From positions 1-13,317 of the forward strand of contig CAYHAA010000031.1 of NCBI GenBank assembly GCA_964354495.1: DNA of 13,317 nucleotides, given 5' to 3'. Position 1 is the stretch's first letter. Each line of letters starts with the position of its first letter. The stretch comes from an uncultured archaeon (lineage in GTDB: Archaea > Asgardarchaeota > Thorarchaeia > Thorarchaeales > Thorarchaeaceae). The notes beneath the pieces are model-generated. The model did not search any database and was not told the origin of the DNA. It saw only the letters and a program-made list of their open reading frames with translations. The position numbers were made by a program, and so were the translations under genes. Below, piece by piece: positions 147-13,317 of this stretch.

Positions 147-2027
147 CTATTCTTTGGATAAGAGATGAGTCTTGAAGAAATCAATGCGACCTGCAAGTTC
201 CCTTACTGCTTCATCTTTTCGGATAGTGACATGACCGGATTCAGGCTTTACATGAAGTTCAAGAGGATGATTACGAGAATACAGCCGGTTTGCAAACTCG
301 AGAACCGGAGGAAAGGGTGTACGACTATCATTTGAGGCAACGCTTATCGCCAGTGGAGCCTTGATATCATCGACTCTGCTTATCGGTGACCGTTCGAGCA
401 TCAGAGCTCGATTCTCATCAGGATTGCCCCACATTTCCTTGATGAACTCCTTGAATATGGCATCACCATGGTCAGCCATGTACGTCCAATCCGCTACAGG
501 AACAACAGCATACCCGGCAGCCCATCTCTCAGGTTGGAATGCTAGTCCTGCTAGGGTCATGAAACCACCATATGATGCACCAGTAATGCCTACTCTCTTT
601 GGATCGATGCCAAAATTCTTGACAATATAATCCACTCCAGAGCTGACATCCTGCAGATCTGCTCGCCCAGCCTCTTGAAATAGGGACTTGTTGAATGCCA
701 ATCCATAGCCCGTCGATCCTCTAAAGTTCGGTGCGAAGACTGCAAAACCTTCCTGTGTGAAGACCTGTAGAGTACCCAAGAAAAAGTCCGAGAAATGTGA
801 AGACGGCCCCCCATGGATCCATGCCAAACAAGGATAGCCTCCAATAGGTCTTGGTCTAGAGGGGAGTAGTAGAAATCCATGGATGGTGGTCCCATCAAAT
901 GAAGAATTGTATGAGATTGATTTAGACTCAACAACAGGGAATTCTTCCGTGTCTATTAGTTCGGACTGCCAACGGGTCACTTTCTTGTTTTGACCACTCA
1001 TGAGATTATGAGACCAAAGCTCTTCAGGCATTGCAGCATCAGAATGATTGTAGAACAATAGCTGTTTACCCTTGTTATCTCTTACATAGTATGGTGTGTT
1101 TGTACCTATAGGCAAATTCAGCAATTTCATTGTGTTTTCATCTATATCTATCTCATGAACTGTTGAGCGTCCATCTCTCATTGCTTGTTGGTAGAGCTTG
1201 TTTCCATCAGGACTCCAAATGCATTGTGCAAGTTCTCCTTCAGGTTGCGGAAGCTCTCTCAACTCTCCAGTTTCAGCGTTGTAGATTGATAACCTTCCAA
1301 AGTCACCCTTGGGCTGAAGCAACGGAACAAGAGGCCGTTTTGGATTCCATTGCTGCAGAAACCAGTAAGGGGGCAGAGTAGGTATCTCAGAGATTACTTC
1401 TGCAGTTCCGGGATTGAATATAACAAGAGCACCCTCTTGCCATCCTCCTGGGCGAGCACCTTGAGCAAAAGCAAGACTGGGATGACCCCATTCAACAAGG
1501 ACCGGAACCAACCTCGCAACGCATTCATCATCAAGAGCCGGTTCTGGAGTTGCCTTTAGGTCATTGGAGATCTTCGATACATGATGACCATCCTCGTACG
1601 ATCCGCAATAGATTACATTAGCTCCATCAGGCGACCAATCAAACCAGAGAAGGCGATGAGGCTCGATTTCTGAAAACACCAGTTCTTGTATATCATCTGA
1701 TTGCCTAAAGCCACGAAGAGTGTCAAATCGACATAGGTATGATTTCTCCGAACCGTCGGGGTCTGCTGCGGCCAGAGTGTACTTATCATCAGGTGAAAGA
1801 AGAGCAGGCAACGGAACGAACTTGACAGTACTAGGCAGTAGAGTCTCTTTCTTCGTAGGTCTTCTCAAAGAACTTCTTATGAGAGAGTAGCCTCCAGACT
1901 CAGCTAGCCTCTGGTATAAGAAGAGGTCCCCGCTTTTCGAGAAGTCTGTTGGAGTTGTAAAATATGTCGCTTCAAGTGCAATCTTTAGACGTTCATAGAT
2001 GGATATCAAATGATTCCCTCCTAACAT
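147..2027 (-). CDS. S9 family (prolyl oligopeptidase / acylaminoacyl-peptidase-like) serine peptidase, 626 aa
   Basis: C-terminal alpha/beta hydrolase with IHGGP, NFRGSTGYG, nucleophile elbow GASYGG, Asp in NDSRT and His in ESGH; N-terminal WSPDG-type beta-propeller repeats. Confidence 0.92.
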   Translation of the reverse strand: MLGGNHLISIYERLKIALEATYFTTPTDFSKSGDLFLYQRLAESGGYSLIRSSLRRPTKKETLLPSTVKFVPLPALLSPDDKYTLAAADPDGSEKSYLCRFDTLRGFRQSDDIQELVFSEIEPHRLLWFDWSPDGANVIYCGSYEDGHHVSKISNDLKATPEPALDDECVARLVPVLVEWGHPSLAFAQGARPGGWQEGALVIFNPGTAEVISEIPTLPPYWFLQQWNPKRPLVPLLQPKGDFGRLSIYNAETGELRELPQPEGELAQCIWSPDGNKLYQQAMRDGRSTVHEIDIDENTMKLLNLPIGTNTPYYVRDNKGKQLLFYNHSDAAMPEELWSHNLMSGQNKKVTRWQSELIDTEEFPVVESKSISYNSSFDGTTIHGFLLLPSRPRPIGGYPCLAWIHGGPSSHFSDFFLGTLQVFTQEGFAVFAPNFRGSTGYGLAFNKSLFQEAGRADLQDVSSGVDYIVKNFGIDPKRVGITGASYGGFMTLAGLAFQPERWAAGYAVVPVADWTYMADHGDAIFKEFIKEMWGNPDENRALMLERSPISRVDDIKAPLAISVASNDSRTPFPPVLEFANRLYSRNHPLELHVKPESGHVTIRKDEAVRELAGRIDFFKTHLLSKE

Positions 2028-2295: not shown

Positions 2296-3306
2296 TCATG
2301 GTATTGAAAATGCTTTCTGCAATATTCCTTTTTCGATGCCTTTTGCTTTCTTACTTTTATAGCCAATGGTTTTATTCCGAAAGTATCTCATCATTATTTC
2401 CTTATCACTAGAAACCTCGCTCTCAGAGATATATTGGAATATGCTTTCCCATGTAACCCTTAGAAACTTCCTTCGCTGATTCTCCTTGATGTGCTTCCCA
2501 AAGATGGCCTCGATATCCGCCTCTCGTTTAGACCGCACCAGATTAATGAGATAGAAATCTACTTTCTGCTGATCTGCCATCCAAGTTCCAAGAATCCAGA
2601 ATCGTAATAATTCATACAGCCCCTCATTCACAACCTTTTCAAATTCGGAGTGAAAGACTTTGAAGAACCAATTCTCTCCACCAGTCAAGTATTTCTTTTT
2701 TCTTCTTGAAATGTAGGATGGGTCTTTCTTTGGGGGGTTCTTTTTGTTTGGAGCATCTAACTTTGCCTCAATGAAGAACAGTGCACGGTCAGTATGGATT
2801 ATAATATCCGGTTCTGAACCCTGAGATCTAGTTTCACCAAACTTGTCTCTTGCTGTATTCAGTGGCGACCAACCAGCATCTTCTTTCTGACTATATGACC
2901 AATAGATTACTTCAGAGGATTTAGGTGATGTGTTGGTTATAGAGCTCAACATTCTTTCGACAAGATTATTCTTCTCCAAGAATCTAAAAACATTCCAACA
3001 AACGGCATCTTCGCAATTGTCGTGTTCCATTCGACACCTTCTTTTAAAAACCTTAATTCTCTCTAATAACTCTAAGTCTAGCTGTTCTTTCCAGAGCAGA
3101 TTATCTGATACGTTCGGGTATTGAAAGGTTGAAGGGGAGATGACAATTCTGTCTCGGGGACACCTGAAATTCTCTCTAAATTCTTGGCCCTTTGTTTCAT
3201 TTGTCATTTTTTCAACAATTTCACTGCAACCTTTAACTGGACATTCAACTTTTGTGTCGGTAATTTCGATTTTTTCCTTCAATTCCTCTGCACCGAGCAT
3301 TTTCAA
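2296..3306 (-). CDS. PD-(D/E)xK putative restriction endonuclease (PGN_0703-like), 336 aa, with N-terminal Cys cluster
   Basis: SEPDIIIHTDRALFFIEAKL catalytic motif; upstream EDAVCWNVF motif resembles the PGN_0703 family; CPVKGC...CPRD possible Zn site; visibly more AT-rich than its neighbours. Start is TTG 3306 or ATG 3300. Confidence 0.7.
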   Translation of the reverse strand: MKMLGAEELKEKIEITDTKVECPVKGCSEIVEKMTNETKGQEFRENFRCPRDRIVISPSTFQYPNVSDNLLWKEQLDLELLERIKVFKRRCRMEHDNCEDAVCWNVFRFLEKNNLVERMLSSITNTSPKSSEVIYWSYSQKEDAGWSPLNTARDKFGETRSQGSEPDIIIHTDRALFFIEAKLDAPNKKNPPKKDPSYISRRKKKYLTGGENWFFKVFHSEFEKVVNEGLYELLRFWILGTWMADQQKVDFYLINLVRSKREADIEAIFGKHIKENQRRKFLRVTWESIFQYISESEVSSDKEIMMRYFRNKTIGYKSKKAKGIEKGILQKAFSIP

Positions 3307-3367: not shown

Positions 3368-3412
3368 CGTTTGGCGAATATACTATCTGACTAAAAACTG
3401 TTGAAAAAGAAA

Positions 3413-3490
3413 AGAGTGGCTCAACAGCGAGCAGCAATAGACTGGTTTCAGAGAGGATAAACTCTGCGTTTCTTGGGTCGAAAACTCACT
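3413..3490. repeat. Dispersed repeat copy R3 (most diverged; right boundary approximate)
   Basis: AGAGTGGCTCAACAGCGAGCAGCAA matches R4 at 23/25; a distal GCGTT...GTCGAA block is retained; A-rich tract (TTGAAAAAGAAA) on the left as in R2 and R4. Confidence 0.75.
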
Positions 3491-3579: not shown

Positions 3580-4383
3580 ATGAACATTGATGAGTTCATA
3601 GAGAAACTAAAAGAGATCCGGGATTCTGGATTTGTCGAGTCCCACAGAGCGGGAGATACAGGAATTGGCAAAACTCTCGAAGATAAGTTAGAAATCAATG
3701 AGAACAATATAGCTGGTCCTGATTTTAGTGTTTACGAGTTAAAATCTGGCAGAAGGCAATCCAGTTCAATGATTACGCTTTTTACGAAAACGCCCGATCC
3801 TAAGGGAGCAACAAAGGAACTAGTAGACCATTTCGGTTACAAACATCGAAAGGGGTCTTCCAAAACAAGACAGGTGACTCTTGTTCATGTAGCTGAAGAA
3901 AGCGAATTCATTCCACTTGAAGACAAGGAGCTTCATGTCACTGTGGATGCACTCAGACCAAACAGCGTCGGATTGCAGCTTAAGTTCGTTGGAGATAGAT
4001 TGTACTTCAAGAATGACAAAGGTGTCATCGCTTACTATGACAGGGATGAGTTGGAGAAGACATTTGAGAAGAAGTACAAGAGCATGGTCTATGTCATAGC
4101 AGACTGCAAAAGCGACGGGAAGAGAGAGTCCTTTTGGTTTAACGAGGCATATAGACTTGATAGATTCGGTTTCTCAACATTCTCCAAATTAATCAAAGAT
4201 GGTCTTCTAAAGGTCGATTTACGTGTGGGACATTATCCAGATGGAAGAGTGCACGACCATGGGACTGGTTTCAGAATCTTACCTGTTCATTTTCCAAAAT
4301 GCTTCGAAGTGATTGAATGCATCCTGCCACTTGAAGAAGTATACCAAAAGGCAATCATTCCGGAACTGGATGGAAGAAACTGA
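3580..4383 (+). CDS. MvaI/BcnI family type II restriction endonuclease, 267 aa
   Basis: GDTGIGKTLED...NENN...PDF...ELKS.R...MITLFTKTP and C-terminal HDHGTGFRI are typical of this family; adjacent to a methyltransferase. Confidence 0.88.
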   Translation: MNIDEFIEKLKEIRDSGFVESHRAGDTGIGKTLEDKLEINENNIAGPDFSVYELKSGRRQSSSMITLFTKTPDPKGATKELVDHFGYKHRKGSSKTRQVTLVHVAEESEFIPLEDKELHVTVDALRPNSVGLQLKFVGDRLYFKNDKGVIAYYDRDELEKTFEKKYKSMVYVIADCKSDGKRESFWFNEAYRLDRFGFSTFSKLIKDGLLKVDLRVGHYPDGRVHDHGTGFRILPVHFPKCFEVIECILPLEEVYQKAIIPELDGRN

Positions 4384-4409: not shown

Positions 4410-5699
4410 TTAGACCTTTCGCAGAATAACTATGTGCTCATTGTGCATTGTATCAGCCTTGAACCCTTCGACATTCTCTGGCGCATTCTGCCAAGGCATC
4501 CTCTTGGTTGGGATATTCCGAGGGATTGTGCACTCATGGTCGAAACCTAGAACTGTGCCTAGCTCTGCTGTAATCTTGTCCGTTGGAATTCGCACCCGAG
4601 CCATCAGACGGTTGCCAATCACAATGCACGCATGTCCGTTTCTCTTCAACTTCTGATACATTGTTTCAATAGATTGATTGTAGTCAAAGAAGAAATTGAA
4701 AAACGCCTTCGCCCGTTTTGGGCTGTTCTTGCGTACTCTCTCATAGGTCTCATTCAGAGTCTTGCTTTCAAGAAGAGTCTCATCAAATTTCTTAGAATTA
4801 CTGCCACCAAGCCCTCGCCTGTCTACCGATTGCACCTGTTCATAGTCAAGTCCAATCCAATGCGCAGGATATCGTGAGAATTGCCCATATGCAACAGTAG
4901 TACTGTGATCACCGTATGGGGGAGATGTGACAATAAGGTCAATAGAACTGTCATCTATTGGGGCTTCTCTGTTGTCAGCATATATCACTCTCGACATACT
5001 ATAGTCTTCCGGCAGCGCCTTCACAAAGGGTGCCATCAGAGGGATGCATCTTCTGACATTGGCTCGGAAGACTTCATAGACATCAGGAGTGAACGACTTC
5101 TGCTCATCCTCCTTCATTCGAACAATCTTGAACTCTGCCTTCTTCAAGTTGGATGTCTCTCGTGCTGTGTGCGCTAGGCAGAGTCTAAAGAAGTCCCTGA
5201 CAGGTTCATCCTCAACTGACTCGATTGCTTTCTTGATGACTGCTAGGTCAGCCTGAACATATTCCTTGAACCAGAGATTTGCGTTATGCATCGCTGGAAT
5301 TTCGAGGGTACCATGTAACTGCTTTCTGACTGATGCTATCTTGTTACTAAGCCTCTCGCTTGCTCGACGAAGAACATCGTTATCAATTGGGGTCGTCTTG
5401 ACCTTTGAAAGGAATACTGCGAAAGGATTGAGATCAGTACCGACTGATGTTCTACCCGTGAGCATTGACTCAACGAGTATTGAACCAGAACCACAGAATG
5501 GGTCCCAAACCAAGTCATCCTTTTCTGAATAGCGCTCAATGAGCTTCCTCGCAACCTGAGGAATCATTCTGGCTGGGTATGGATGGAGACCGTGAGTCAT
5601 GTACTTCGTGTCTGCCCCTGCAAACGTCCAGTCCTCTACTGGTTCTTCCCTATTGTCAGGGTCGAAGTCAGGCAATCTACTCTGTTCCATCATTACCAT
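4410..5699 (-). CDS. DNA methyltransferase, probably N4-cytosine, alpha-class motif order (M.MvaI-like), 429 aa
   Basis: THGLHPYPARMIPQV, motif I DPFCGSG precedes motif IV TSPPY; convergent with the REase (26-nt gap). The target sequence cannot be read from this. Confidence 0.9.
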   Translation of the reverse strand: MVMMEQSRLPDFDPDNREEPVEDWTFAGADTKYMTHGLHPYPARMIPQVARKLIERYSEKDDLVWDPFCGSGSILVESMLTGRTSVGTDLNPFAVFLSKVKTTPIDNDVLRRASERLSNKIASVRKQLHGTLEIPAMHNANLWFKEYVQADLAVIKKAIESVEDEPVRDFFRLCLAHTARETSNLKKAEFKIVRMKEDEQKSFTPDVYEVFRANVRRCIPLMAPFVKALPEDYSMSRVIYADNREAPIDDSSIDLIVTSPPYGDHSTTVAYGQFSRYPAHWIGLDYEQVQSVDRRGLGGSNSKKFDETLLESKTLNETYERVRKNSPKRAKAFFNFFFDYNQSIETMYQKLKRNGHACIVIGNRLMARVRIPTDKITAELGTVLGFDHECTIPRNIPTKRMPWQNAPENVEGFKADTMHNEHIVILRKV

Positions 5700-5773: not shown

Positions 5774-6300
5774 AGAAACGTAGGAGGTGATCCCCGATCT
5801 GTTGGTAGGAAGAGAAGATGCCCTGCTTGTGCCCGTGCAGGGACGTCCGACCTGCTAAGTAACAGTCGAAACCTGGAACCCCTAGTCCGACCGCAGTTGG
5901 TGAGTGAAACTTCTCCACCTTCAACTTCCATGTTCAGCACTCCTCATGACTCCTGTCACCAGCAACCAGCAGGACCTCTCCAGCTGGGCGTGCATGAGTT
6001 TCGCTGTGCCTCATTGGAGCATGACTCCTCTTCACAGACTGAGCATCTGTCCGCTGCGCTGTATTATCATGGTCACCAGAACCCACGATGGCAGACGGCG
6101 TTTCCATGGTCTTTTCCATGGCTTGGTCGGTACTACTCGCAGACTCCTCAAGAGAGGTCTGGTCATAGCAGTCAGCCACGGTGCTCCCTACAAGCGAAGC
6201 TGGCAACTTCTTGGGAACTGAGGACATCCCTTTAGAACGAGCCCTCCGGGTCTTCGGGGAGGCCTTCCGTATTGGCGGAAGCCAAGTCCCTAGTCCTTCC
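5774..6300 (-). ncRNA. Putative TnpB omegaRNA (scaffold overlapping the 3' coding tail and trailer; candidate guide ~5793-5774); boundaries uncertain
   Basis: Position 3' of tnpB (established for TnpB omegaRNAs); hairpins such as CCCTGC-N10-GCAGGG near 5821-5842 and CTTCCG-N6-CGGAAG near 6265-6280; a ...GGGGATCAC end resembling IS605-type right ends. Inferred, not demonstrated. Confidence 0.45.
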
Positions 6301-7676
6301 TCACCCCTCAAGGAGGGAATGAGCCTAATCAAACGCAGACCGATGTTGATCGCTGCGTTCTTGTCCGCGTTATCGCGGTACCCACATGTGTGACAGAGGA
6401 AATAGCTCTGCTTTGGTCGATATCCTGTAGACCCACACTTGTGACACTTGATGCTGGTCCAAGCCTCCGGAACTGAAAACACCCTCTTGGGATTGAATCC
6501 ATTCAGACTGAGCTTGTGTTGGAGCGCGTTGGTGATGCGAGCAAAGGACCATCGGTTTATCAGCCCACGAAACCGGCTCCCCTTTCCATCACCCTTTCGT
6601 GCGCGATTACGGATTCCTTTTAGTTGCCCTATTGCGACAAAGAGATCATAGCGTTGCGCCAGTTCAAGAACGTGCTCGGAGAGCTGTTTCACGAGCTTCC
6701 CGTCATAGTCGAAACTGACATTCTCACGCTTAGAGCTCATTGCACGAAGGCGTTTCGTGACCTCATCTGTTGATTGAACATTCCTCAGACGGGTGTCGCG
6801 CTCCACCTGGAGGCTTGCCACCATCCCATCATAACGCTCAATCTGTTTCGCTTTTTCGCAGTCGGTCCAGAACCTGACCTGTCGAAAGCCGCTCTGAGTC
6901 AGTACAACAGAACAGACTGCCTTCTTTATCCCGAGGTCTATCCCTATCACTGCAGGGGGTCTTTGTTCAGGCTTGATCGAAGTGACATCGACCTTGACCT
7001 TGAAGACCACCCACCACTTTCGCTTCCTGTCCTTCACAATCTGAATGGACTTCCTCTCTCCCAGACTCAATTGGTTGAGATGATAAGAGGAAGGACTCAG
7101 AGGAATTGCCAGTCTATCGTGACGTACTCTTCCTTCTCTCACTGAGTCGAGAGCATCACGAAGGATGAGCCAGTGCTTGATCTCCTTGTCAGGAGTATAC
7201 ACAAACTCGAACATCCTCGTGAACATGTGACGAGGCAGCTTCCTCGAACTGTACCCCTTTGCCTGTAGGGGCTTGTTCCTACCTAGAGCGAGATACACCT
7301 TCCACATTGCAATGGCTGTCTCTCGGCACTCCTGGAGTTCATTTGTTGAGATGTTTGGGAATCGTTGTTTGAAGTCGTGAGGAACGTTCTTCGTATCAGT
7401 CCGCAGTGTCAGTTCGTCTAACTTTCCAGCATCGAGTTGTTTCTTGTTCGTTCCAGCAAGGAGGTTTCTCTCATGTTTCTCAATTACTCCCAGATAGGCC
7501 TTGATGACTCTGGTGTCCCTTCCTGTGATTCTGGACAGGCGTGTCTTCTGTCTCTCCGTCATCACATCCCATCGGACAGGGACTTTGACCGTCGTCATCA
7601 CGCCACTGGAGCGACCCATGAGATTCCGCCTCGCGTATATAAATTCCCGACCTGTTTCCGGTCGAGGGAGTTTCAC
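5934..7676 (-). CDS. tnpB: TnpB-family (IS200/IS605, solo IS1341-like) RNA-guided endonuclease with rearranged RuvC-II and long C-terminal tail; true start probably 7619 or 7598
   Basis: RuvC-I VIGIDLG, Zn ribbon CHKC...CHTC, RuvC-III NADKNAAINI. The canonical RuvC-II Glu position reads AIGQL, with an alternative Glu in VPEAWTS. TTTATATA at 7643-7636 lies inside the annotated N-terminus. No tnpA in the window. Confidence 0.88.
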   Translation of the reverse strand: MKLPRPETGREFIYARRNLMGRSSGVMTTVKVPVRWDVMTERQKTRLSRITGRDTRVIKAYLGVIEKHERNLLAGTNKKQLDAGKLDELTLRTDTKNVPHDFKQRFPNISTNELQECRETAIAMWKVYLALGRNKPLQAKGYSSRKLPRHMFTRMFEFVYTPDKEIKHWLILRDALDSVREGRVRHDRLAIPLSPSSYHLNQLSLGERKSIQIVKDRKRKWWVVFKVKVDVTSIKPEQRPPAVIGIDLGIKKAVCSVVLTQSGFRQVRFWTDCEKAKQIERYDGMVASLQVERDTRLRNVQSTDEVTKRLRAMSSKRENVSFDYDGKLVKQLSEHVLELAQRYDLFVAIGQLKGIRNRARKGDGKGSRFRGLINRWSFARITNALQHKLSLNGFNPKRVFSVPEAWTSIKCHKCGSTGYRPKQSYFLCHTCGYRDNADKNAAINIGLRLIRLIPSLRGEEGLGTWLPPIRKASPKTRRARSKGMSSVPKKLPASLVGSTVADCYDQTSLEESASSTDQAMEKTMETPSAIVGSGDHDNTAQRTDAQSVKRSHAPMRHSETHARPAGEVLLVAGDRSHEEC

Positions 7677-7856
7677 TCAACCTCTTTCTCCGGAGATTGA
7701 CTGATAACCTCCACACTTTATCTGATGCAGGGAAGTATATAAATTCATTAAACGTATTTCATATTATTGAGATATATTGTCCAATAGTAGGATATTGGGC
7801 AAAATAGAAAAGGGAATATCCCGCTACACTAGCACATTGCGTCTGGAGACGATTAA

Positions 7857-10800
7857 GTGTCATCCACGGAGCCAGCGGAGATCATAGTAAATGCACAGAT
7901 TCTTGGTCTTAGAGCTTTAGTTGATTTGCTGAGAGAACGAACAACCAAGGACACCCGATACTTACATACACTAGGACAGCAGCGTCTGCTATCAGCGCTA
8001 GAAGAGTGGCAACAGAGCATCGAGCACGGAAGCCCCAGGTTCAATGCGGTTGCAGAAGAAGAAAAACATCTTCGAGATTTCGAGCTTGAGAACATCTGGG
8101 AAACAACAAGTAGCTATGGTAACACTGAAACAAAACGTGTCAGAAGCGAGAGAGATGGAGTAGTAGGGCCTCTCAATAGACTCATCAACATCTTCGGAGG
8201 CGAGTTGAAAAATCACTTTCTTCTCCTGTATCCACTTGAAGCACCTGCTAGGATTGGCAGACAAAGGAGCAAGACAGTCTGGGGATATCAAAGTGAAGAA
8301 CTGGGTGATGTCCCTGTCGCTCATGGAGTAGACCTGCCTGAGCTTGATCTGGCGGATATGGTCCGATCTTTCGGTCGGGAACTGTGCCGGAAGTCGTTTA
8401 TCTTCGGGGCTCCTACAAATGCCTTTGATGCATACTGCTTTCTTCTCATTCGCCATCTTTCGTCATATGTAGACTATGTCTATACCAATGGCCGGTGCGG
8501 CAGTGCTCAGTTCCTGCGTTCGAAAACAAAGGCAGACAAGAAAGTAAAGGAGGACCCCTGTGCTGCTGAGGTCCTACGAGAGATTGTCGATGAACTAGGA
8601 AGTCTGTATGGTAGAGGGCCTACTCCTCTTTCATCACCATCAAGAATCCAAGAGAAGAGAGGGAAGCGTACAACAAAGAAGTTCTTCAAAGATCAGATTG
8701 AGAAGCTTCATAGACTAAGTAAAAAGAGACCGCAAGAGAAGAAGGAACTGCTGACATGGGCCAAGTTTCTCGAGACACTCACAGCCAGTAAGAAGCCAAA
8801 ACTACGAGATAGCGATGCTCAACACCTCTACGAGATTGTCCGGAATATTTCCAGATATGAAGGCGACAAATATCACAGATTTCTGACTGATGGATTGCCG
8901 CAGGTCTACAAAGCCGAATCAGTGATTTTACAGGGAGACCAATTCCTTCAACGGGGAGAAGACATCCTTATTGTCGGAGAATCCAAGATTCGGACCGATG
9001 AAGGATCTGGTCGAATAGACCTTGCAGTATACATAAGGACCGAGATACCTAACCCAAACCGACCTGGAAAAATAGCCGTCATGAGACCAATCGGAGTCTT
9101 TGAGATAAAATCACAGACCGGTTTCGACTGGGAGATTAGGACCAAGAAGACAAGAGGAAAAAAGAAGAAGACTGTTGTAAGGTTCATCGTGAGAAAGAGA
9201 GGGCTCACCGATGACGAATGGACTAATGCCCTTGCAGAGGTACCATCAAGAGGTGCAATTAGGCAGTTGAACCTCTACGCCTCTGGACTTGTCAGAGAAT
9301 ATAGAAGACTGACTGGAGATGAGACTGTCACGGATATTCTCAAAGGCGTCATTCTTGTTGACACACAGTTCGATGTAACTCTCAACAGAGAACTAGTGAT
9401 GTCTCTCCTGAAAGACGTCGCGAGTAGTCAGATTCTGAATGGCAAGGTTGGGAAAGGCAACCGATTGCTGATTCGGTCGAAGAGTTCAATGGCAAAGAGA
9501 GCGGCACTTGTGCTTCTGTCATCAGACAAAGGACAGGCTGAAGGGTTGAAGTCAGAGAGAAAAGCACTGGACTCTAAGGTCCTGTACAATCCCTTATCCA
9601 ATGTTGAAGGTGGTTCTTCACGACATATTATCTACCTGAGTGCAAGGTCTGCATCTAACTCCGGTTTCACTTCTGCATGGATTGCGCGATACTGGCACGG
9701 AATGCAGTATCTTCAACAACTGAGTGAGGACCATGGGAACAGACCAGTCGTATGGCTAGACCTTACTGGTGATTTTAGTGATAGCAACCTCGCGAAAGTT
9801 CGACTCAGAATGCAGCACCAAGACGCTGCGACAGAAACCTTCTTCGATAACATCAGGTTTATCGACCTCTCAGCCAATGTTGAGGGATTCTTATTCAGGG
9901 GAACAAATCCGCCAAATATACCAGCGCTTGGCAAGTGGCAGGACAAGATTGTGGTCGTGAGTGGGTGGGAACGGATCGAGAAGTCGACGCCGCCTCGATT
10001 GAAAAGCGCACTAGCTGAACTTGAGAGATACCTAGTCCAGGAGATGCATCGTACCGGATGCCCATCTGTCTGGTTTCTCGAGCCAAGACCCGACGAGAGG
10101 ACCTCGGAGATATATCACACAAGGTGCTTGATTCCCTTTTGGTCTTCTTCTCCTCATCAACAATATGTCACAGATGTTGTCTGGAATCTTCCGATTCGTC
10201 CGTACACATCAGTTCAGACCACTCCAATGCTTGATGACCTTCGAGTTATTGTCTACCAGACAAAAGATACTATCAAGACTGAGGCGATTGAGTTTCCACT
10301 CCTGAGGGACTGGTCTTCAAGGTTCTGGAGCAAGCGTAGCAAGAGAAAGACTTCGAAGGTGCGCAGCAAAGAGAGCAAGGGGAGAGTTGCGCTCACTCCG
10401 CAAGACGTGCTAGGCAGTGCTCAGCTCTCGAAAGACCTTATCTTTGATTCCATAGACCTCATTCCCTGGCTTCGAGACCTCTGGCATCAAGACTTTGCGA
10501 GGACACCAAATGACATCCGTCAGGATGTCCGATTCGATACTACAACCCTGTATGGTAATCCATCACCACGGTCAGGTGTCATGTCGCGAATGATGTATCG
10601 TGCCAAGATCAAAGGTACACGAGGAAAAAGGGGCTATATGACCTCTCAGCAACTGATTCCTAAGGAATCAATCACTCATCCAAGACACTACAGAAGATAT
10701 CGCCGCATCCAGAGAAATACTCTGAATACACAGAGCTACAGCGCACCAGATGAGAGACTTCTCGAGTTCAGACAATTCAGGGAGCAGACTGCTCAAAATG

Positions 10801-12773: not shown

Positions 12774-12792
12774 CAATGAATGAAAAATGAAA
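12774..12792 (-). terminator. Putative oligo-T terminator after R4 (analogous tracts at ~2101-2110 and ~3401-3412)
   Basis: Minus strand TTTCATTTTTCATTCATTG directly after the repeat core; T-rich tracts are the known archaeal intrinsic terminator type. Confidence 0.45.
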
Positions 12793-12886
12793 AGGGTGGC
12801 TCAACAGCGAACAGCAAGAGCAAGTTCTCCACTTTGGCATCGGGCAACCTGACGATTGCACCGCGTTCCCCGTCGAAGGCCCGTAC
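12793..12886. repeat. Dispersed repeat copy R4, in the 16S rRNA 3' trailer
   Basis: 94-nt homolog of 1-94, ending 64 nt beyond the 16S 3' end; followed on the minus strand by a T-rich tract. Confidence 0.9.
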
Positions 12887-12889
12887 CTC

Positions 12890-12945
12890 TCTTGCATTCC
12901 CGAAGGACTGCAAGACCAAGCTGCTTCTACCTCTATGAGATAGAA
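12890..12945 (-). other. Two hairpins in the 16S 3' trailer
   Basis: UUCUAUCUC-AUA-GAGGUAGAA (12945-12925) and UCUUGCAGUCC-UUCG-GGAAUGCAAGA (12915-12890, C(UUCG)G tetraloop, one G/A mismatch). Confidence 0.6.
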
Positions 12946-12959
12946 AACATAGGAGGTGA

Positions 12960-12990
12960 ATGATGGAAGACGAGATGACTCTCGACTTCT
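12960..12990 (-). other. 16S micro-intron I4, 31 nt, after A1531 (E. coli numbering), just 5' of the anti-SD core
   Basis: Central helix GAUG/CAUC, bulges GA^A and AU^U, intron stem GAAG-U-CGAGA / UCUCG-U-CUUC; predicted cuts give GGAUCACCUCCU exactly. The outer exon helix is minimal. Confidence 0.88.
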
Positions 12991-13022
12991 TCCATCCGCA
13001 GCTTCCGCTACGGATACCTTGT

Positions 13023-13052
13023 ATTTCGCCGCGCCACGAAGTGTAACGCAGT
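13023..13052 (-). other. 16S micro-intron I3, 30 nt, after A1499
   Basis: Central helix GUCG/CGAA (3 pairs plus G.A), bulges UA^A and AU^A, intron stem CUGCGU/GCGCGG; removal gives GUCGUAACAAGG. The boundary can slide by 2 nt; this register is the best BHB fit. Confidence 0.8.
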
Positions 13053-13155
13053 TACGACTTCTCCCCACTTGCCGTCCCAAGATTCGTGGTCGCCCAGTGG
13101 ACGACACCTCACCCAAGAACAGCTCGCGTGGAGCGACGGGCGGTGTGTGCAAGAA

Positions 13156-13185
13156 TTCCCCGGAGGCGCGAAAATCGCACCCCCA
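13156..13185 (-). other. 16S micro-intron I2, 30 nt, after ~C1386
   Basis: Central helix CCCU/GGGG, bulges GC^U and AA^U, 10-bp intron stem GGGGGUGCGA/UCGCGCCUCC; removal gives GUCCCUGCUUCUUGCAC (canonical length). Confidence 0.85.
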
Positions 13186-13232
13186 GCAGGGACGTATTCT
13201 CCGCGCGATAGTGACACGCGGATACTAGGGAT

Positions 13233-13262
13233 ATCCTGATGCGCATCGAAGTGGTGCGCAAA
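13233..13262 (-). other. 16S micro-intron I1, 30 nt, after A1339
   Basis: Central helix CCUG/CAGG, bulges GA^U and AU^A, intron stem UGCGCA/UGCGCA behind a U.U mismatch; removal gives CUGGAAUCCCUAG. Confidence 0.88.
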
Positions 13263-13317
13263 TCCAGGTTCACGCGGGTGAGTTCCAACCCGCGATCCCG
13301 ACTACGACTGGGTTTCG

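Follow-up and report, generated by a model that had tools for sequence, protein, structure and literature searches.

Segments of 16S rRNA behind a Thorarchaeota tnpB gene as candidate guides against insert-free 16S genes

How does a tnpB gene come to be followed by pieces of its host's 16S rRNA gene, and could these pieces be guides of the TnpB nuclease? The question is raised by a stretch of DNA of 13,317 nt (the window), which is a whole 13.3-kb contig (C31) of a 3.3-Mb archaeal metagenome-assembled genome (MAG; G000), 47.7% G+C; other G, L and C numbers denote other genomes, loci and contigs. Read on the minus strand, the window holds the 3' 370 nt of a 16S gene, a 175-nt trailer, a giant open reading frame (ORF) on the opposite strand, tnpB, ~235 nt of non-coding DNA, a type II methyltransferase/endonuclease pair and two further genes, with the TnpB element located ~7 kb downstream of the 16S gene. 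A preliminary description had proposed that a segment ~140 nt past the tnpB stop is a TnpB guide, matching the 3' end of a 16S gene that lacks an intron, here called insert I4.

This segment, the 20-mer GGATCACCTCCTACGTTTCT, indeed starts 141 nt past the tnpB stop and lies, together with the array described below, within the ~235 nt of non-coding DNA. The 16S gene of G000 ends in ...GCGGATGGA (...GGATGGA), followed by 31 nt (12990-12960) and then by TCACCTCCTATGTTTTCT; joined without I4, it reads GGATCACCTCCTATGTTT, which is 17/18 identical to the 20-mer. A chance match, which the preliminary description had allowed for in part, was ruled out by three observations: when the window was shuffled 200 times with dinucleotides preserved, no shuffle matched with two or fewer mismatches, the 12-mer GGATCACCTCCT has its single occurrence in the 3.3-Mb genome at the 20-mer, and the junction of GGTCGG with GGATCACCTCCT recurs downstream of the orthologous tnpB in G015, G007, G023, L106 and L111. 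The sequence joined to the last GGTCGG is GGAT(C/T)A(C/T)CTCCT in six genomes, and in G007 the 16S tail continues after this junction through the whole trailer. Furthermore, insert-free 16S alleles reading GGATGGATCACCTCCT are present in the same genus (G012, G017 and G005).

The right end of the element and the array behind it

The TnpB ORF is intact, with the RuvC-I Asp (D247, in GIDLG) and the RuvC-III Asp (D438, in NADKNAA) both invariant and a CxxC..CxxC zinc finger that reads CHKCG..CHTCG. The protein was recognised by Pfam PF07282 (TNB domain, 6.8e-13), by PADLOC as Cas12f and Cas12u, and by TnpB/Cas12f chains in the PDB (1e-12). It belongs to the Asgard 'aCas1-associated TnpB' family, which is characterised by a GTTCACTCA motif, flanking repeats and Asgard hosts, and whose guide was left open (Altae-Tran et al. 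2023, PMC10691335). Here too, the host is an Asgard archaeon, with the orthologous contigs assigned to Candidatus Thorarchaeota; a variable stretch and then a GTTCACTCA-type motif lie downstream of tnpB; and copies of the element are flanked by repeats, of 46 bp in C27 and 60 bp in G012, and by 16S-tail repeats in C31 and G015. G000 encodes five to six tnpB paralogs, and the genus up to 15 per genome; these are paralogs at the protein level, no further DNA copy of the element being found in G000.

We then located the right end by comparing the 3' flanks of homologous tnpB loci, as the preliminary description had suggested. Alignment and alifold of 18 copies revealed covarying stems in an omegaRNA-scaffold-like stretch, and about 20 paralogous or orthologous copies share this scaffold as well as a covarying terminal hairpin, whose loop carries GTTCACTCA and which is followed by 4-10 nt and then by GGTC or GGGTT. 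Immediately after GGTC or GGGTT the flanks diverge; a conserved scaffold followed by locus-specific sequence, the arrangement typical of TnpB, was found at the DNA level in the 18 copies. In C31, this places the right end at GGTC(GG), 5892-5887, and the candidate guide at 5886-5870. The 20-mer, located 95 nt beyond this terminus, therefore does not occupy the guide position assigned to it earlier. It is not invariant scaffold either, as scaffold and hairpin end 95 nt upstream of it and the 20-mer itself drifts among homologs.

Instead, the right end is followed by an array. G000 carries three units after it, namely A (antisense to 16S), B (sense, decayed) and the 20-mer (sense tail), which is always the last unit in the array. 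The orthologs (63-80% TnpB identity; G015, G007, G023, L106, L107, L109, L110, L111 and L115) show the same design, with one to five units behind the terminus, each of which ends in a further GGTCGG. Every unit starts immediately after GGTCGG with 12-27 nt identical to insert-free 16S on either strand, as matched by blastn-short against the insert-free 16S of G017, and continues with an unrelated filler. Unit A (ACTAGGGATTCCAGGTT, antisense) matches 17/17 in L106 and 16/17 in G000; unit B (ACGTCCCTGCTTCTTGCACACACCGCC, sense) 27/27 in L107 and over 17-18 nt in G007, L109 and L110; unit C (ACCTTGTTACGACT, antisense), which is found in relatives, 14/14 in L106, L111 and L115; and the tail unit, in sense, over 12-20 nt. 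The synteny of 16S, giant ORF, tnpB and array is seen on single contigs in MAGs of different studies.

On the 16S side, the segments are immediately preceded by CGGAT (A, C and tail) or AGAAT (B), the matching strand running GCGGAT, ACGGAT, GCGGAT and GAGAAT before them, while the array reads GGTCGG at the same place. CGGAT occurs nine times on both strands of 1700 nt, and three of these nine occurrences directly precede segments. At the level of sequence, this layout is that of a transposon-adjacent motif (TAM) and protospacer in the target, and of right end and guide in the element.

Two features of the tnpB gene itself were also noted. Its frame continues through the whole scaffold region (window 5934-6260, minus strand), giving 580 aa compared with ~550 in the paralogs, since the paralogs' usual stop codon (..CGATGA) is missing here; the C-terminal tail seems 'conserved' at the protein level in all paralogs probably because it is RNA scaffold. 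In addition, a hairpin CGACC-GGAAACA-GGTCGG stands just upstream of the tnpB TATA box (window 7690-7720, minus strand, and paralogs). Its 3' arm is the same hexamer as the right-end terminus, and the hexamer variant (GGTCGG or GGTCAG) co-varies between upstream hairpin and terminus in C31 and C6.

Hairpin inserts at the array-matched 16S sites

The 16S gene was identified with Rfam RF01959 (85 bits, 12982-13317, minus strand; no other Rfam family was found in the window) and aligned with insert-free alleles of the genus; the remainder of the gene is not assembled in G000. Four hairpin inserts of 30-31 nt (I1-I4) lie within its last 330 nt, and each falls inside one array-matched segment: I1 in that of unit A, I2 in B, I3 in C and I4 in the tail. 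Each 16S site of G000 is thereby split 3-11 nt after CGGAT/AGAAT. A whole-genome split-match scan found each of the four segments once, only in 16S, preceded by cggat or gaat and split by 30, 30, 30 and 31 nt, and no intact copy of any of the four targets in G000. Across the whole 16S gene of six genomes compared, there are only five insert sites, four of which lie inside array segments; by our own rough estimate, the chance of this is ~1e-5. The earlier idea that a TnpB guide spans the insert junction of insert-free 16S hence applies to every unit (A/I1, B/I2, C/I3 and tail/I4), each with a TAM-like neighbour, but not to the 20-mer as the present guide; the flank comparison, which had been meant to settle the scaffold boundary and to see whether guides repeatedly hit such junctions, showed guide-like units repeatedly spanning rRNA insert junctions. 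The fifth insert site (30-31 nt) is located in the 16S 900 region, GACTGAA^ACTTAAAGGAATTG, of G048 (L187) and G047 (L188), and no array unit matching it was seen.

The inserts are uniform in size, their hairpins are preserved via compensatory changes, and I1 and I3 of G000 are ~60% alike. They are polymorphic in presence at conserved rRNA sites among relatives, as in archaeal bulge-helix-bulge (BHB) introns. I1 is absent in G015, G012, G002, G017, G005 and G045, and G048 carries a different 30-nt insert, 5 nt from the I1 position and inside the same unit A protospacer. I2 is present in G000, G012, G045, G047 and G048, with compensatory stem changes, and absent in G015, G002, G014, G017 and G005; I3 is present in G000, G015, G012, G002, G044 and G048, and absent in G014, G017, G005 and G045. 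I4, whose hairpin is kept by covariation among copies, is carried by all four 16S-tail copies in the G000 assembly and is absent from the 16S of G012, G017, G005 and G045. I4 accompanies this tnpB in G000 and was also found in G002 and G014, which lack this tnpB. The idea that the inserts are footprints of element ends, or the fillers copies of inserts, was dropped, as no similarity was seen by eye (no formal test was made).

We next compared the first, scaffold-adjacent unit with the genome's own 16S in the five genomes with data. In four of the five, it matches a site that is split. In G000, the first unit is A and its own site is split by I1; in G045, it is B (27/27) and the own site is split by I2, the I3 and I4 sites being intact, with unit C and a degenerate tail in distal position; in G047, it is B, again with the own site split by I2; and in G048, it is A, with the own site split within the same protospacer by the different insert 5 nt away, an independent event. 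In G015, the first unit is A and the own site is intact; this guide has lost 1 nt after nt 12. Non-first units can match intact own sites, as does unit C in G045. Distal units decay (unit B in G000 and G023), whereas scaffold-adjacent ones keep 17-27 perfect bases. Genomes without this tnpB have either no inserts (G017 and G005) or some (G012, G002 and G014). This cross-genome pattern is suggestive rather than proof, since the sample is small and the genomes are related.

Table 1. Features of the window considered in the text
Feature	Position	Strand	Remarks
MvaI/BcnI-like endonuclease, type II restriction-modification	3580-4383	plus	context, outside the array
Methyltransferase, N4/N6, type II restriction-modification	4410-5699	minus	context, outside the array
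20-mer GGATCACCTCCTACGTTTCT, last unit of the array	5774-5793	minus	insert-free 16S tail and first trailer bases
Unit B filler and third terminus-like hexamer GATCGG (5799-5794)	5794-5836	minus	filler with hairpin CCCTGC..GCAGGG
Unit B segment ACGTCCCTGC	5837-5846	minus	sense 16S; 10 nt identical, ~24 nt decayed copy
Unit A filler (17 nt) and second GGTCGG (5852-5847)	5847-5869	minus	weak likeness to right-end terminus (z 0.8-2.5)
Unit A segment ACTAGGGGTTCCAGGTT	5870-5886	minus	16/17 to antisense of 16S AACCTGGAATCCCTAGT; scaffold-adjacent (guide) position
Right-end hairpin and terminal GGTCGG (5892-5887)	5887-5927	minus	family motif TTTCACTCAC at 5910-5901
omegaRNA-scaffold-like conserved DNA	5928-6160	minus	ends ...GGTGACAGGAGTCATGAGGAGTGCTGAACATGG (family: ...GGTGACA..GGAACAyrG)
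tnpB ORF, 580 aa	5934-7676	minus	stop TGA 5936-5934
Giant ORF, 1630 aa	7857-12749	plus	conserved divergent partner of tnpB
16S trailer module	12776-12950	minus	ends in repeat ...GTTGAGCCACCC; multi-copy in genus
16S rRNA gene, 3' part	12951-13317	minus	cut by contig end; mature tail ...TCACCTCCT ends at 12951
I4, 31-nt hairpin	12960-12990	minus	between GGA and TCACCTCCT (GGA^TCACC); the intron of the preliminary description
I3, 30-nt hairpin	13023-13052	minus	inside AGTCGTA^ACAAGGT; splits site matched by relatives' unit C
I2, 30-nt hairpin	13155-13184	minus	inside ACGTCCCTGCT^TCTTGCAC; splits unit B site
I1, 30-nt hairpin	13233-13262	minus	between AACCTGGA and ATCCCTAGT; splits unit A site 9 nt after CGGAT

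Possible origins and functions of the array

On balance, the array probably consists of present and former TnpB guides against insert-free 16S DNA, with the 20-mer as its last and oldest unit. Insert-free 16S DNA would be recognised by the TnpB-omegaRNA complex through the scaffold-adjacent unit, here A (5886-5870). The 16S copy linked to the element would escape because its protospacers are split in their TAM-proximal part, and the array itself would escape because GGTCGG stands in place of the TAM. The downstream units would be former guides that have been pushed away from the scaffold. Whether the inserts are spliced is irrelevant to such DNA targeting, since in the DNA they interrupt the protospacer at 3-11 nt from the TAM-like motif.

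As for how the array arose, the element may have integrated at the 16S 3' end, the tail unit being a displaced or duplicated 16S 3' end. This unit is most likely the original flank of the integration, on the right side, and would once have been the guide by the rule that the guide is the right flank. The tail with full trailer in G007, the C17 copy with its 23S 3' end and the C27 and G012 copies with their tRNA-Gly repeats support such an origin. The earlier alternative of a guide that steers the island to the rRNA trailer is compatible with it, if the 20-mer flanked the element when this first integrated at the 16S 3' end. Units A-C would have arrived later, between right end and tail, and the weak likeness of the fillers to the right end is compatible with nested insertions or with a repeat-duplicating integration. 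A strain without tnpB but with the same sequence before the methyltransferase gene was not found; L115 lacks the tail unit, and its methyltransferase leader directly follows unit C.

The consequence could be simple tolerance of a self-targeting element, or else a cleave-and-rescue or homing-like advantage for a chromosome that bears both the element and an insert-bearing 16S. The fuller version of the latter, which we regard as doubtful, is a natural toxin-antidote system: a multi-guide nuclease against universally conserved sites of the essential 16S gene would be tightly linked to a 16S 'recoded' by harmless 30-nt inserts, insert-free chromosomes or incoming DNA would be cut and repaired from, or replaced by, the linked allele, and the guide set might be built by a Cas1-like partner, in which case the locus would be a living transitional form linking the TnpB omegaRNA to type V CRISPR arrays.

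Several observations weigh against the guide interpretation. The comparison of first units covers five related genomes, all of them MAGs, the 16S being missing for G007, G046 and L115, and G015 is an exception to it. Inserts also occur in genomes without this tnpB (G012, G002 and G014). A canonical BHB motif, in which a 4-bp helix joins two 3-nt bulges that contain the splice sites, was not found in the inserts, as judged by RNAfold for I4 and by eye for I2 and I3; relaxed forms may be present. In the I4 fold, a 9-bp stem leads via one 3-nt bulge to a 5-bp stem capped by a tetraloop, and the 5' junction lies within a helix; for I2 and I3, inspection by eye found no exon-2 pairing for a central helix. 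The TAM is based on four 16S sites only, the likeness of the fillers to the right end is marginal (z 0.3-2.7), and tandem 16S pieces of 12-27 nt with unrelated filler are left without explanation. The canonical Glu position of RuvC-II is an invariant Gly350 in the aCas1-associated TnpB family, clades with this replacement having been described as carrying a 'rearranged' site with an alternative Glu (PMC10691335). For this family, the guide has been tentatively assigned to the variable stretch that precedes GTTCACTCA rather than to the sequence behind the hairpin (PMC10691335). Finally, no conserved motif was found at the left ends, beside the giant ORF stop codon, in 17 copies, which also rules out a simple IS605 anatomy with a left-end TAM.

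An alternative, possible but unlikely in our view, is that the array is a structural relic. The 20-mer would then be a target-site duplication or displaced 3' end left by a Cas1-like (casposase-like) integration, the other pieces would be debris, none of them a guide, and their overlap with inserts would reflect shared hot spots. Indeed, a 7.15-kb unit lies between direct repeats (12959-12942 and 5790-5774) and equals in size the C27 copy, which is enclosed by 46-bp tRNA-Gly repeats; G012 has a right-end remnant and a tRNA half to the left of the element; C17 holds a duplicate of the 23S 3' end; G007 retains tail and trailer; and flanking repeats are known from the literature (PMC10691335). 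However, 185 nt of trailer separate the left repeat from the giant ORF, so that the two 16S-tail repeats are not simple element boundaries. Debris also leaves unaccounted for the origin of A, B and C from distant 16S positions on both strands, their exact starts at CGGAT/AGAAT and GGTCGG, the spanning of insert sites, and the 17-27 perfect bases of scaffold-adjacent units against the decay of distal ones.

Somewhat less likely still is a spacer-like acquisition, in which the Cas1-like partner would add short TAM-adjacent pieces of DNA to the end of the omegaRNA gene, with duplication of the terminal repeat, giving a minimal CRISPR-like array with the newest spacer beside the scaffold. A Cas1 homolog has been reported as partner of this TnpB family, and GTTCACTCA is said to resemble the start of a CRISPR repeat (PMC10691335). 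The units have spacer-like lengths (15-27 nt), the first unit differs by lineage, and the stretch after each unit resembles the right end of its own genome, as with CTTTGCATCGGGTCGG versus CTTTGCAACGGTCGG in G007 and TTTGACTTGATTTC..CAGGTCGG versus the right end TTTCACTCGCCTTCTCAGGTCGG in G015. Yet only 6-8 nt are truly repeated, the likeness between filler and terminus is weak (z 0.3-2.7), and the near-identical direct repeats of at least 20 nt that mark a CRISPR array are lacking, the true repeat being GGTCGG(AC) only. The giant ORF gave no Cas1 match by Pfam, PDB or hhalign. Moreover, all 'spacers' are self, and units A, B and C are common to several genomes, so that units turn over slowly, and this turnover may consist in losses through recombination between GGTCGG copies.

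That the 20-mer (5793-5774) is the present TnpB guide and directs the cutting of I4-less 16S ends, as first proposed, now appears very improbable. Besides its 17/18 match to the insert-free tail, it is preceded by the terminus-like GATCGG, its target by CGGAT, and the G015 20-mer ends in an oligo-T run. However, known TnpB ribonucleoproteins need a guide that is contiguous with the scaffold, as in the ISDra2 structures, and the 20-mer lies 95 nt past the family-wide terminus, with 1-5 ortholog-variable, unrelated units in between. The pairwise divergence of the 20-mer between genomes is ~15-20%, equal to that of the neighbouring non-coding DNA, so that its drift looks neutral, and G007 and G023 have two mismatches each inside 12 nt that are invariant in real 16S; because of this drift and these mismatches, there is no sign of the 20-mer being kept as a guide now. 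A role at the RNA level, with C/D-box-like guides, processing guides or decoys of the anti-Shine-Dalgarno (anti-SD) tail acting on rRNA rather than DNA, is hardly tenable: two units (A and C) run antisense to stretches of 14-17 nt that are conserved in 16S, and the tail copies the anti-SD, but half of the units (B and tail) are sense, neither adjacent C or D boxes nor an Rfam match were found, and the strict CGGAT/AGAAT adjacency and the position at the TnpB right end fit DNA targeting.

Known systems, the partner gene and other copies

The closest published relatives are the Cas1H-Asgard-1/2 aCas1-TnpB transposons (PMC10691335), with which the element shares the Thorarchaeota host, tnpB with a large partner gene, GTTCACTCA after a variable stretch, flanking repeats and the RuvC-II Glu to Gly change. 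In those, the guide was tentatively placed before GTTCACTCA; the 16S-linked clade here has 16S-identical segments after hairpin and GGTCGG, arranged as a small array whose matching sites are split in the host 16S. Our literature search found no paper describing a 16S-directed TnpB guide array or its split host targets.

IS200/IS605 homing offers a second parallel: an RNA-guided nuclease is encoded at the right end of a transposon, its guide is the adjoining DNA, and it targets the empty site, where a TAM stands next to the guide sequence. In those elements, the occupied site is protected since the TAM has been displaced. Such TnpB-omegaRNA homing is said to have been described for ISDra2 and the IS605 family by Karvelis in 2021 and Meers in 2023. 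Here, in contrast, TnpA is lacking and the partner is a giant protein with Cas1-like motifs; several guide-like segments are present, which do not form the current flank in the genome and each of which matches a host gene that is essential; and the linked target would be protected by insertions, not by the transposon itself. The IS200/IS605 mechanism has been reviewed (PMC13565253).

IStrons (PMC4227781; bioRxiv 10.1101/2023.11.20.567912) likewise tie TnpB to RNA insertions that make gene interruption harmless, with a conflict between guide and intron. The present element is not an IStron: no group I ribozyme was found (no Rfam match), and the inserts are 30-nt hairpins 7 kb from tnpB rather than around it, tnpB lying outside the interrupted gene. 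LAGLIDADG homing endonucleases are placed in BHB introns of archaeal rRNA in the passage of PMC13565253 that cites Dalgaard 1993. They share with the present case polymorphic inserts and, on the guide interpretation, the recognition of conserved rRNA sites across the insertion point and immune insert-bearing alleles; here, however, the nuclease is RNA-guided, encoded in trans and of several specificities, and the inserts are ORF-less, with no canonical BHB motif found. Casposons and tRNA-3'-end integrators resemble the element in the proposed Cas1-family integrase and in copies at the 3' ends of tRNA-Gly, 16S and 23S genes with a duplicated gene end, but here there is no PolB and there are no clear terminal inverted repeats, TnpB is present, and the Cas1 homology of the partner was not confirmed in searches.

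If the guide interpretation is correct, it would locate the guide of a TnpB family for which the literature had left it open, and it would describe a transposon nuclease aimed at an essential, invariant host gene, with insertions, not mutations, shielding the copy in the host. To our knowledge, there is no earlier natural case of this kind. Small inserts in Asgard rRNA genes would be linked to mobile-element conflict, which is an old idea for tRNA introns that has lacked a mechanism. The array could also mark a step on the way from TnpB with a single guide to CRISPR arrays with multiple guides beside a Cas1 homolog, and the cleave-and-rescue version, if true, would explain concretely, in terms of selection, why archaeal stable-RNA genes carry small insertions.

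The giant ORF is paired with tnpB in 17 of 17 loci examined and, from this conserved pairing, is probably the 'aCas1' of the literature. It gave no match in Pfam (searched in four pieces), PADLOC, PDB (single sequence and profile) or the ESM Atlas, its hhalign probability against Cas1 was 0.6%, which is not significant, and a scan of the genome's contigs with the giant protein as query gave no match. At the motif level, PLNxLLNYxGAxLR and H..LDFxDMIR within its first 200 residues resemble Cas1 active-site helices, and an invariant IDL...EIK pattern (D388, E416 and K418) fits a PD-(D/E)xK nuclease.

Other copies of the element also lie at the ends of stable-RNA genes. A paralogous giant ORF/tnpB pair in C17 is found ~5 kb downstream of the 23S gene (C17 1-260 and 12687-15795; L090 and L184). 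Its right end (GGGTC) is followed by AAAGATATCCACTTGC, which matches 23S in 13/14 positions, and, 50 nt further, by a 137-nt copy of the 23S 3' end with 98.5% identity; the real 23S has a 91-nt insertion directly after ...AGAUAUCCA (model position 2882). The C27 copy (L089) is bracketed by 46-bp direct repeats (7083-7128 and 14290-14335; 87% identical) of the 3' half of tRNA-Gly(TCC), the right one starting at the giant ORF stop codon, and the G012 copy (L083) by 60-bp tRNA-Gly repeats, the left of which includes a right-end remnant. In the C6 paralog (L088), the 21 nt at the guide position, GCCGCAGGTTCGAATCCAAGG (C6 13480-13460), match C1 379879-379930 (L197) as 6 + 15 nt split by 29 nt, with ~0.003 such matches expected by chance. 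No recognisable tRNA was found at C1:379879, and the G012 ortholog retains the 29 nt, no insert-free allele being seen.

Downstream of the array, the type II restriction-modification pair is syntenic in G015, and the methyltransferase leader is conserved in G015 and L115. Besides this pair, the defence-type cargo includes a REase-ARP family restriction endonuclease (2296-3306, minus strand) and an S9 peptidase (147-2027, minus strand); these last two genes of the contig are separated by short copies of the trailer's end. A module that runs from the 3' half of helix 45 through the 31-nt insert and the anti-SD tail into the trailer (window 12776-13014) has three further copies in contig C30 (L002), at 8577-8815, 6-188 and 2044-2200, with no 16S body attached. 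The final 40-110 nt of the trailer, ending in GTTGAGCCACCC, recur between cassette-like genes that encode PIN toxins, a methyltransferase, MFS and BNR proteins; within the window, such copies lie at 1-94, 2103-2143 and 3402-3440, and G012 has at least nine of them downstream of 16S at a spacing of ~1.4 kb. These trailer-end copies look like the result of repeated integration at the 16S 3' end, or like an integron-like cassette array.

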